A program made the translations under genes and the position numbers. The notes below the pieces were generated by a model. That model had not been told where the DNA came from and did not search any database. It saw nothing but the letters and a program-made list of their open reading frames with translations. This document shows, piece after piece, positions 16,021-16,134 of a stretch of DNA of 64,000 bases (its first letter is position 1; the number at the start of each line of letters is the position of its first letter). Source of the stretch: Eledone cirrhosa (Eukaryota). The stretch spans positions 27,714,001-27,778,000 of the forward strand of contig OZ024762.1 in NCBI GenBank assembly GCA_964016885.1, read 5' to 3'.

Positions 16021-16134
16021 GGAATTACCCCTTGAGAAGCTCGGCTATTCAAATACCAGGATAAAAATGTTCATTTAGTCCAGAATTAGCCGTCGAAACG
16101 GCTTGAGCTCAGCCGTCGGGGTCCAACTCGTTCC
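16021..16134 (+). ncRNA. Hammerhead ribozyme with UUGAGAA (U3-A8) core, long stem II, GUC cleavage triplet
   Basis: ggaa-tt-acccc TTGAGAA g-ct-cggcta-ttc..gaa-t-tagccg-t-c GAAA cggct-tgagctc-agccg TC ggggt..ttcc. Confidence 0.7.

Follow-up and report, generated by a model that had tools for sequence, protein, structure and literature searches.

A U3-A8 hammerhead motif of type I and its 56-nt helix II region in a Hydra-clade Penelope-like element of Eledone cirrhosa

Introduction

What hammerhead ribozymes do for Penelope-like elements (PLEs) is an open question (PMC8557442, PMC11167929). According to PMC4209133, PLE hammerheads do not require a tertiary contact between loop II and stem I; in vitro those of metazoans cleave slowly and depend on dimer formation, and a rate of 1.97 per min in 10 mM Mg2+ is given for a fungal one whose helix III is large. 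The hammerhead of the Poseidon element PAc of Anolis, also carried by a PLE, differs from the motif reported here in its C3-G8 pair and its minimal helix III, and its activity needs the PLE protein; its single mutants at positions 3 and 8 are dead and the double mutant is partly rescued, and the protein-assisted ribozyme is dispensable for insertion in vitro, catalytic mutants still being inserted (PMC11167929). Hydra-clade PLEs are characterised in PMC8557442 by a DKT motif in place of DKG, a CxCX5C linker, a C-terminal GIY-YIG domain whose conserved E and N are flanked by CxxC and CxH motifs, an N-terminal RWK motif and insertion into (TA)n; all 25 families listed in File S2 of that paper (26 rows) carry a hammerhead, in every case with C3-G8, and Naiad PLEs are described there as having spread without canonical hammerheads.

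Replacement of the C3-G8 pair by U3-A8 is itself on record. A passage of PMC3088659 (2011) describes this covariation, the same as that of the core reported here, in several natural hammerheads and states that the variant is active in vitro, without tying those hammerheads to PLEs; PMC4209133 (2014) describes it in the Cercyon PLEs of Schistosoma mansoni, where the variant gave ~1,300 matches and had escaped the first descriptor. The main point of the initial annotation of the present locus, the U3-A8 pair, had therefore been published before.

The motif and its closest relatives

We analysed a stretch of 64,000 nucleotides of Eledone cirrhosa contig OZ024762.1, referred to here as the window. 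A complete hammerhead motif occupies 16021-16134 on the forward strand, with the following features.

16021-16134, plus strand: whole motif, including a possible outer helix 16021-25/16130-34 (constrained folds)
16027-16031, plus strand: 5' strand of stem I, 5 bp with 16118-16122
16032-16038, plus strand: catalytic core U3 U4 G5 A6 G7 A8 A9 (TTGAGAA), read from the sequence
16039-16094, plus strand: helix II region, separating A9 from G12 by 56 nt (constrained folds)
16088-16103, plus strand: competing 6-bp hairpin with G12-A14 in its loop, predicted inactive (minimum free energy structure)
16095-16098, plus strand: G12 A13 A14 A15.1 (GAAA), read from the sequence
16098-16116, plus strand: helix III, 16098-103/16111-16 with a 7-nt loop; 6 bp counting A15.1-U16.1
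16117, plus strand: C17, predicted cleavage site (GUC), positioned by the hammerhead consensus
16118-16122, plus strand: 3' strand of stem I, read from the sequence

Every part named in the initial annotation (stem I, TTGAGAA, a stem II of ~55 nt, GAAA, a 6-bp helix III and the GUC) was found where it had been placed, the helix II region measuring 56 nt. Position 3 and position 8 form a Watson-Crick U3-A8 pair in both copies of the motif in the window, G12-A13-A14 is found at 16095-98 together with the A15.1 of the A15.1-U16.1 pair, U16.1 lies at 16116, and C16117 provides H17. In constrained folds the base of helix II is the G10.1-C11.1 pair followed by a small internal loop, its middle is a 9-bp helix with one bulge (16042-50/16083-92) followed by an asymmetric loop, and its distal part is an interrupted hairpin (16059-81). 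Helix III contains an 8-nt palindrome, 16104-16111, that permits an 18-bp intermolecular duplex. By inspection of the motif no contact between loop II and stem I, a trait of fast natural hammerheads, is evident.

The closest published U3-A8 relatives, the minimal Cercyon hammerheads, share with this motif the type I topology, the location in a PLE terminal repeat, the G10.1-C11.1 pair, a longer than canonical helix II and a palindromic helix III, but their helix II is 7-8 bp long, their helix III is almost absent and they belong to another PLE clade (PMC4209133), in contrast to the 56-nt helix II region, 6-bp helix III and Hydra-clade host found here. The Hydra-clade hammerheads are likewise of type I and lie near the 3' end by (TA)n, several of the rows showing G10.1-C11.1 with an extended stem, and their elements share the DKT and CxCX5C motifs with the present one; they differ in their C3-G8 pair, in a helix III that is short and in a span from A9 to G12 of at most ~26 nt (PMC8557442). 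For the length of helix II the nearest match is PLE-X1_sMoe, whose hammerhead has a 9-bp stem II with a 35-nt loop and 54 nt between A9 and G12, although it combines these with C3-G8 and a tiny helix III, is placed near the start of the consensus and belongs to an endonuclease-free plant element (PMC8557442). Each of its three traits (the U3-A8 pair, the long helix II and the stable helix III) is already on record for PLE hammerheads, and the motif adds one example to a known variant, in a clade whose 25 listed families are C3-G8 (PMC8557442). Judged from its sequence, it is an outlier within that clade, with U3-A8 and 56 nt against C3-G8 and at most ~26 nt. Within the window the neighbouring hammerheads have 14-38 nt between A9 and G12, and the 56-nt region is the end of this graded range. 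In the literature searched, which contains few subscription papers, no U3-A8 hammerhead in a Hydra-clade PLE was found, although the supplements of PMC4209133 and PMC3088659 may include U3-A8 motifs in which helix II is long.

A scan of prokaryote genome contigs returned 13 loci encoding related reverse transcriptases (L023-L035), Hydra-like PLE contigs within metagenome-assembled genomes that are probably animal host DNA binned in. C3-G8 hammerhead matches with 11-31 nt between A9 and G12 accompany nine of the 13, though individual matches may belong to other elements, and none of the 13 has U3-A8; a weak A3-U8 candidate in L027 was set aside. A protein-alignment scan of viral contigs gave 160 pattern matches, none related, and the 22 loci from a DNA pattern scan of metagenome contigs had neither hammerhead flanks nor blastn or tblastn similarity and were discarded as chance matches.

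The host element

The motif lies in the following element.

13019-14928, plus strand: 5'-truncated, frameshifted reverse transcriptase and GIY-YIG reading frame of a Hydra-clade PLE (translations, homologues)
15159-16137, plus strand: pLTR-like 3' part of the element, of which 12048-13020 is an inverted repeat
16138-16215, plus strand: 3' tail, in the forward copy only, followed by (TA)n (sequence)
12048-13020, minus strand: inverted, 5'-truncated copy that abuts the element at its 5' end (blastn)
12063-12158, minus strand: second hammerhead copy, in the inverted arm, with N3 at 12153 and C17 at 12068

In translation, the DKG motif is modified to DKT (HSDKTG in the frame 13019-13744), the CxCX5C linker reads CNCPDGSIC, GIY-YIG reads VIY...YIG, and the CxxC and CxH motifs read CNLC and CKH, respectively; the reading frame is truncated at its 5' end before the region of the N-terminal RWK motif. 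A protein search with this reading frame gave 80 homologues, the best with 55% identity, and Pfam gave no match on its two main pieces. (TA)n borders both ends of the unit, matching the (TA)n insertion of the Hydra clade, and loose ends of the family in public reads enter (TA)n behind 16137, 16204 and 16210. On these motifs and a by-eye resemblance to Hydra-1_Obim we assign the element to the Hydra clade. The motif sits 20 nt before the end of the ~980-nt repeated 3' arm, the whole 3' region being ~1.3 kb, and since a relaxed scan of 12000-16300 found no other hammerhead, it fills the slot expected for a hammerhead of this clade. The annotation of a type I hammerhead motif in a PLE is supported.

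The two arms, 15159-16137 and 12048-13020, are 95.5% identical over 988 nt by blastn, with 17 mismatches in 963 aligned positions, and such an arrangement, in which the inverted copy is 5'-truncated and a tail occurs on one side alone, is typical of PLEs (PMC8557442, legend of Fig. 2). The inverted arm had been annotated as carrying the same core, which we confirm; the 96-nt motif differs at one position, the equivalent of C16090 being a G, a change absent from the initial annotation, which breaks a helix II pair and leaves a predicted three-helix probability of 0.017. This change is not among the C>G places reaching at least 4% in the public run X1. The two ribozyme copies are oppositely oriented and cannot dimerise within one transcript. 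Because its reading frame is frameshifted and its ribozyme copies point apart, the element is probably not itself an active source.

The window contains further features. Pieces of a PIF1 helicase, possibly the remnant of a Helitron, lie among the PLEs at 5685-7127 on the minus strand. At 51475-55722 a 310-bp unit is repeated in tandem, five copies on the minus strand followed by nine on the plus strand, 99-100% identical and each containing a minimal hammerhead with a palindromic helix III, an array that resembles a non-LTR retrozyme or a pLTR array. Perfect or near-perfect inverted repeats with short spacers occur at 58353-58472 and 60642-61468, where Rfam miRNA models give sub-threshold matches; both are probably PLE inversion junctions.

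Predicted folding

Folding was predicted with a nearest-neighbour model, which ignores the tertiary contacts of the core. For the allele in the window the three helices form jointly with a probability of 0.39 at 37 °C and 0.49 at 25 °C. The competing fold is an inactive hairpin with a probability of 0.54 at 37 °C, where it is the minimum free energy structure, and 0.42 at 25 °C, the two folds lying within ~1.5 kcal/mol of each other. The hairpin arises because helices II and III share arms, the 3' arms being identical over 6 nt and the 5' arms having 5 nt in common, such that 16088-93 can pair with 16098-103 and place G12-A14 in the loop. Stem I pairs with a predicted probability of ~0.94 in constructs of 96 and 114 nt, which falls to 0.08 when 120 nt from upstream are included in a 238-nt construct. 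The balance also shifts with single changes: three alleles found in the family, C16032, T16111 and A16040, have three-helix probabilities of 0.04, 0.03 and 0.76, respectively, and 22% of 222 single substitutions lower the fold below 0.1.

Dimerisation would alter this picture. The helix III hairpin alone has a predicted energy of -7.1 kcal/mol and the corresponding self-duplex -30.7 kcal/mol, and a full dimer, with helix II intact in both halves, reaches -64.3 kcal/mol against -49.2 kcal/mol for two monomers, making it ~15 kcal/mol more stable. The palindromic helix III or loop 3 of the dimer-type minimal hammerheads of metazoan PLEs is present, whereas helix III, with its 6 bp, is not too short to form alone as it is in that type; as modelled, the motif would work like the dimer type without being the minimal one. 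Most neighbouring hammerheads in the window have palindromic segments of 6-8 nt at this position, and one of them, at 57980, also has a long helix III segment.

The initial annotation held that the motif, unlike its neighbours, looks able to fold as a monomer. A three-helix fold at 0.39-0.49 agrees with this in part, but the competing hairpin, the retained palindrome and the far more stable dimer do not. That the motif is an efficient monomeric ribozyme, of the kind known from fungal and protist PLEs whose hammerheads have a large helix III, is in our view quite unlikely. A helix III of 6 bp and -7.1 kcal/mol, compared with the 6-8-nt palindromic segments of most neighbours, would suit such a ribozyme, as would the predicted early formation of helix II during transcription (in a prefix ending at 16094), the A16040 allele, which is predicted to fold alone at 0.76-0.91, and the rate of the fungal example given above. 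However, the window allele takes the inactive hairpin as its most stable structure at 37 °C, as do prefixes ending at 16103-16116, and it keeps the dimer palindrome and has no evident tertiary contact. Cores with U3-A8 are, moreover, slower than those with C3-G8.

The shared arms raise the question of a selected switch, in which the interchangeable arms of helices II and III hold the ribozyme off when alone, a dimer or protein turns it on, and U3-A8 is fixed since C3-G8 misfolds. The identical and shared arms and the small energy difference between the folds would be expected of such a device, and with C at 16040 the U3-A8 pair is the only Watson-Crick pair at positions 3 and 8 that gives an appreciable three-helix fold (0.22-0.50, against at most 0.01 for the others). 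With A16040, however, the off fold drops to 0.19 and G3-C8 is no worse at folding than U3-A8, and the shared arms could stem from a local duplication, so that we regard a selected switch as highly improbable. In silico, the C3-G8 revertant reaches 0.00 in the window background and 0.12-0.41 with A16040, and misfolding of C3-G8 could in this model explain the persistence of U3-A8, a point that carries little weight because 22% of all single substitutions are equally destabilising. The single revertants U3C and A8G are predicted to misfold in the window context and would make poor controls.

Polymorphism within the family

We compared 15860-16215 with four of 14 public runs (X1, X4, X7 and X12), at 80% likeness and a threshold of 4%; runs X5, X6 and X8-X11, which have small shares, and X2, X3, X13 and X14 were left out. 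Position 3 of the core, 16032, is C in 95,624 of 223,283 depth units in X1 (43%; 66 contigs) and in 288 of 541 reads in X12, values that are contig depth and RAD-seq reads rather than copy counts, and X1 may be the sample of the window itself. The corresponding figures are 22.1 of 30.1 depth in X4 and 8.2 of 29.1 in X7. Position 8 does not follow: a change of A8 to G stays below 4% in X1 and X4, where the sole A>G place is 15882 in each (X7 has one and X12 four A>G places of unplaced position). One X4 record, number 13, spans the core with four differences, which match 15995, 16011, 16032 and 16052 at its depth. A C3.A8 mismatch thus accounts for about half of the core's depth, and the U3-A8 pair is not family-wide. 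The compensatory double change proposed in the initial annotation describes this copy but not the family, in which C3 stands with an unchanged A8 in about half of the depth. We also considered the C variant as a shifted core lacking N7, which would need a 3-nt turn and was judged unlikely from the hammerhead structure.

Of the 45 variant places in X1, 16 (A>T, C>T, T>C, T>A and T>G) are without given positions. In X1 no G>A or G>C place reaches 4% anywhere in 15860-16215 and the two G>T places are 16011 and 16069; hence the Gs of the core and stems are stable. Variable positions lie in loops (16052, 16063-64, 16066 and 16069) and outside the core at 16124, 16125, 16129 and 16130, the internal loop of stem I varying as well. 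The A16040 allele, which gives the base of helix II an additional A-U pair, makes up 23% of X1 depth and 171 of 556 X12 reads, and A16111T, which shortens helix III, about one-third of the depth. In the divergent end of a single X4 contig U3 and A8 are retained next to another N7, and T16052 is the same as in the C3 type; this one contig hints that U3-A8 is the older state.

X1 depth is ~20-fold higher 3' of 16076, and most copies therefore appear to be without the 5' half of the ribozyme. Upstream of these 3'-half copies X1, X4 and X12 show (TA)n or inversion joints (16074-93 to 16131-75). Many copies of the family seem to be pieces of 60-130 nt that start inside helix II and hold only GAAA, helix III and the cleavage-site half; these short 3' pieces possibly result from stalling of the reverse transcriptase at the structure, or belong to a short non-autonomous subfamily. 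Pile-ups of read ends in X12 were considered as RNA or element ends and rejected: of the five listed, four (15947, 16023, 16026 and 16084) lie at AATT sites of the RAD library, and the fifth, 16073, is without this explanation.

These data bear directly on whether the ribozyme is a decaying relic in which G8 was lost long ago, position 3 drifts between U and C, and the U3-A8 pair of this copy has no function. Decay would account for the frequency of C3.A8 in all four runs, the shortened helix III in about one-third of the depth, the copies without a 5' half and the broken helix II of the inverted arm, and the Naiad PLEs offer a precedent for spread without canonical hammerheads. Relaxed drift would not, however, predict that in X1 the Gs of core and stems show no change to A or C alongside variable loop positions, nor that A16040 improves helix II, and the divergent X4 contig end retains U3 and A8 next to a different N7. 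We consider a relic unlikely, though far from negligible.

A second way to read the polymorphism is a bistable hammerhead that is half off when alone, is turned on by a dimer or protein and has U3-A8 fixed by misfolding of C3-G8, accompanied by a dead C3.A8 sister subfamily of similar success; this combination is very unlikely in our estimate. Were it true, the C3.A8 subfamily would be a natural experiment in which cleavage by the PLE ribozyme is dispensable in vivo. More generally, a family with both paired U3-A8 and mismatched C3.A8 cores in many copies would make it possible to compare, in one genome, how old and how successful the lineages with and without cleavage are, and we regard this polymorphism, above the U3-A8 swap itself, as the most useful point of the locus.

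A proposed mechanism

The reading we favour, with moderate confidence, is a Hydra-clade type I U3-A8 hammerhead that is likely to cleave slowly after C16117, to do so better as a dimer, and to perform a step that is probably dispensable. It takes the observed motif, the 20-nt distance from it to the end of the 3' arm, the clade motifs, the (TA)n flanks and the polymorphism as its ground, and adds to them an inferred or predicted chemistry, rate, dimer and dispensability. A transcript of the PLE that extends across the 3' repeat would form a three-way junction in which U3-A8 replaces C3-G8, A8 taking the role of G8 and G12 unchanged, as known hammerhead chemistry suggests. Alone, the RNA is predicted to divide about evenly between the ribozyme fold and the hairpin that hides G12-A14; two RNAs pairing through the palindromic helix III loop, or the protein of the element, may favour the active fold, from which a slow cut after C16117 would follow. 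Hammerhead cleavage leaves a 2',3'-cyclic phosphate. The cut would trim multimeric or read-through transcripts and be unneeded for copying, and dispensable cleavage would let the C3.A8 mismatch subfamily spread.

This reading is supported by the completeness of the motif in the slot expected for the clade, by the predicted stability of the dimer, by the slow and dimer-dependent action of other metazoan PLE hammerheads and by the natural occurrence of U3-A8, stated to be active in vitro elsewhere (PMC3088659) and common in Cercyon PLEs (PMC4209133), and a protein-assisted, dispensable hammerhead of the kind described for Poseidon (PMC11167929) would fit a family with a common mismatched core. 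Within the family, the X1 Gs without a change to A or C, the A8 without a change to G, the one divergent X4 contig end with U3 and A8 and the A16040 allele that raises the three-helix fold to 0.76 point the same way. Against it stand the fragile balance of the predicted folds, the loss of stem I when 120 nt of upstream sequence are included and the lack of an evident tertiary contact, and the C3.A8 core in about half of the depth and the missing 5' halves fit decay as well.

Detection

A strict descriptor of the motif has two matches in the 64-kb window, which are the two copies of the one element, and none in 150 dinucleotide shuffles of the 64 kb; as the descriptor was written after the motif had been seen, the shuffles are a plausibility check and no blind test. 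The overall folding energy is ordinary (z -0.48). Searches with the Rfam hammerhead clan CL00010 gave no match over 16021-16134 at E ≤ 10. As annotated, U3-A8 is a Watson-Crick alternative to C3-G8 that a CUGANGA search would miss. U3-A8 is not the sole reason for the Rfam miss because C3-G8 neighbours with a helix II of 30-38 nt (10186, 18779, 46518, 47159 and 57980) were missed at E ≤ 10 as well. Two further C3-G8 type I motifs with a 30-38-nt helix II, at 10702 and 46358, are undetected by Rfam at the same threshold. The motif illustrates that the number of PLE hammerheads is underestimated by CUGANGA descriptors and by Rfam.

The window also holds a 4,199-bp Hydra-like PLE with an 832-amino acid reading frame, repeated in tandem and inverted, in which all five copies carry the core CCGAAGA with a U4C change.

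29685 and 33884, minus strand: hammerheads with the CCGAAGA core, a 7-bp helix II and a palindromic helix III
36716, 40915 and 45114, plus strand: hammerheads of the same type

This core would likewise escape CUGANGA searches.
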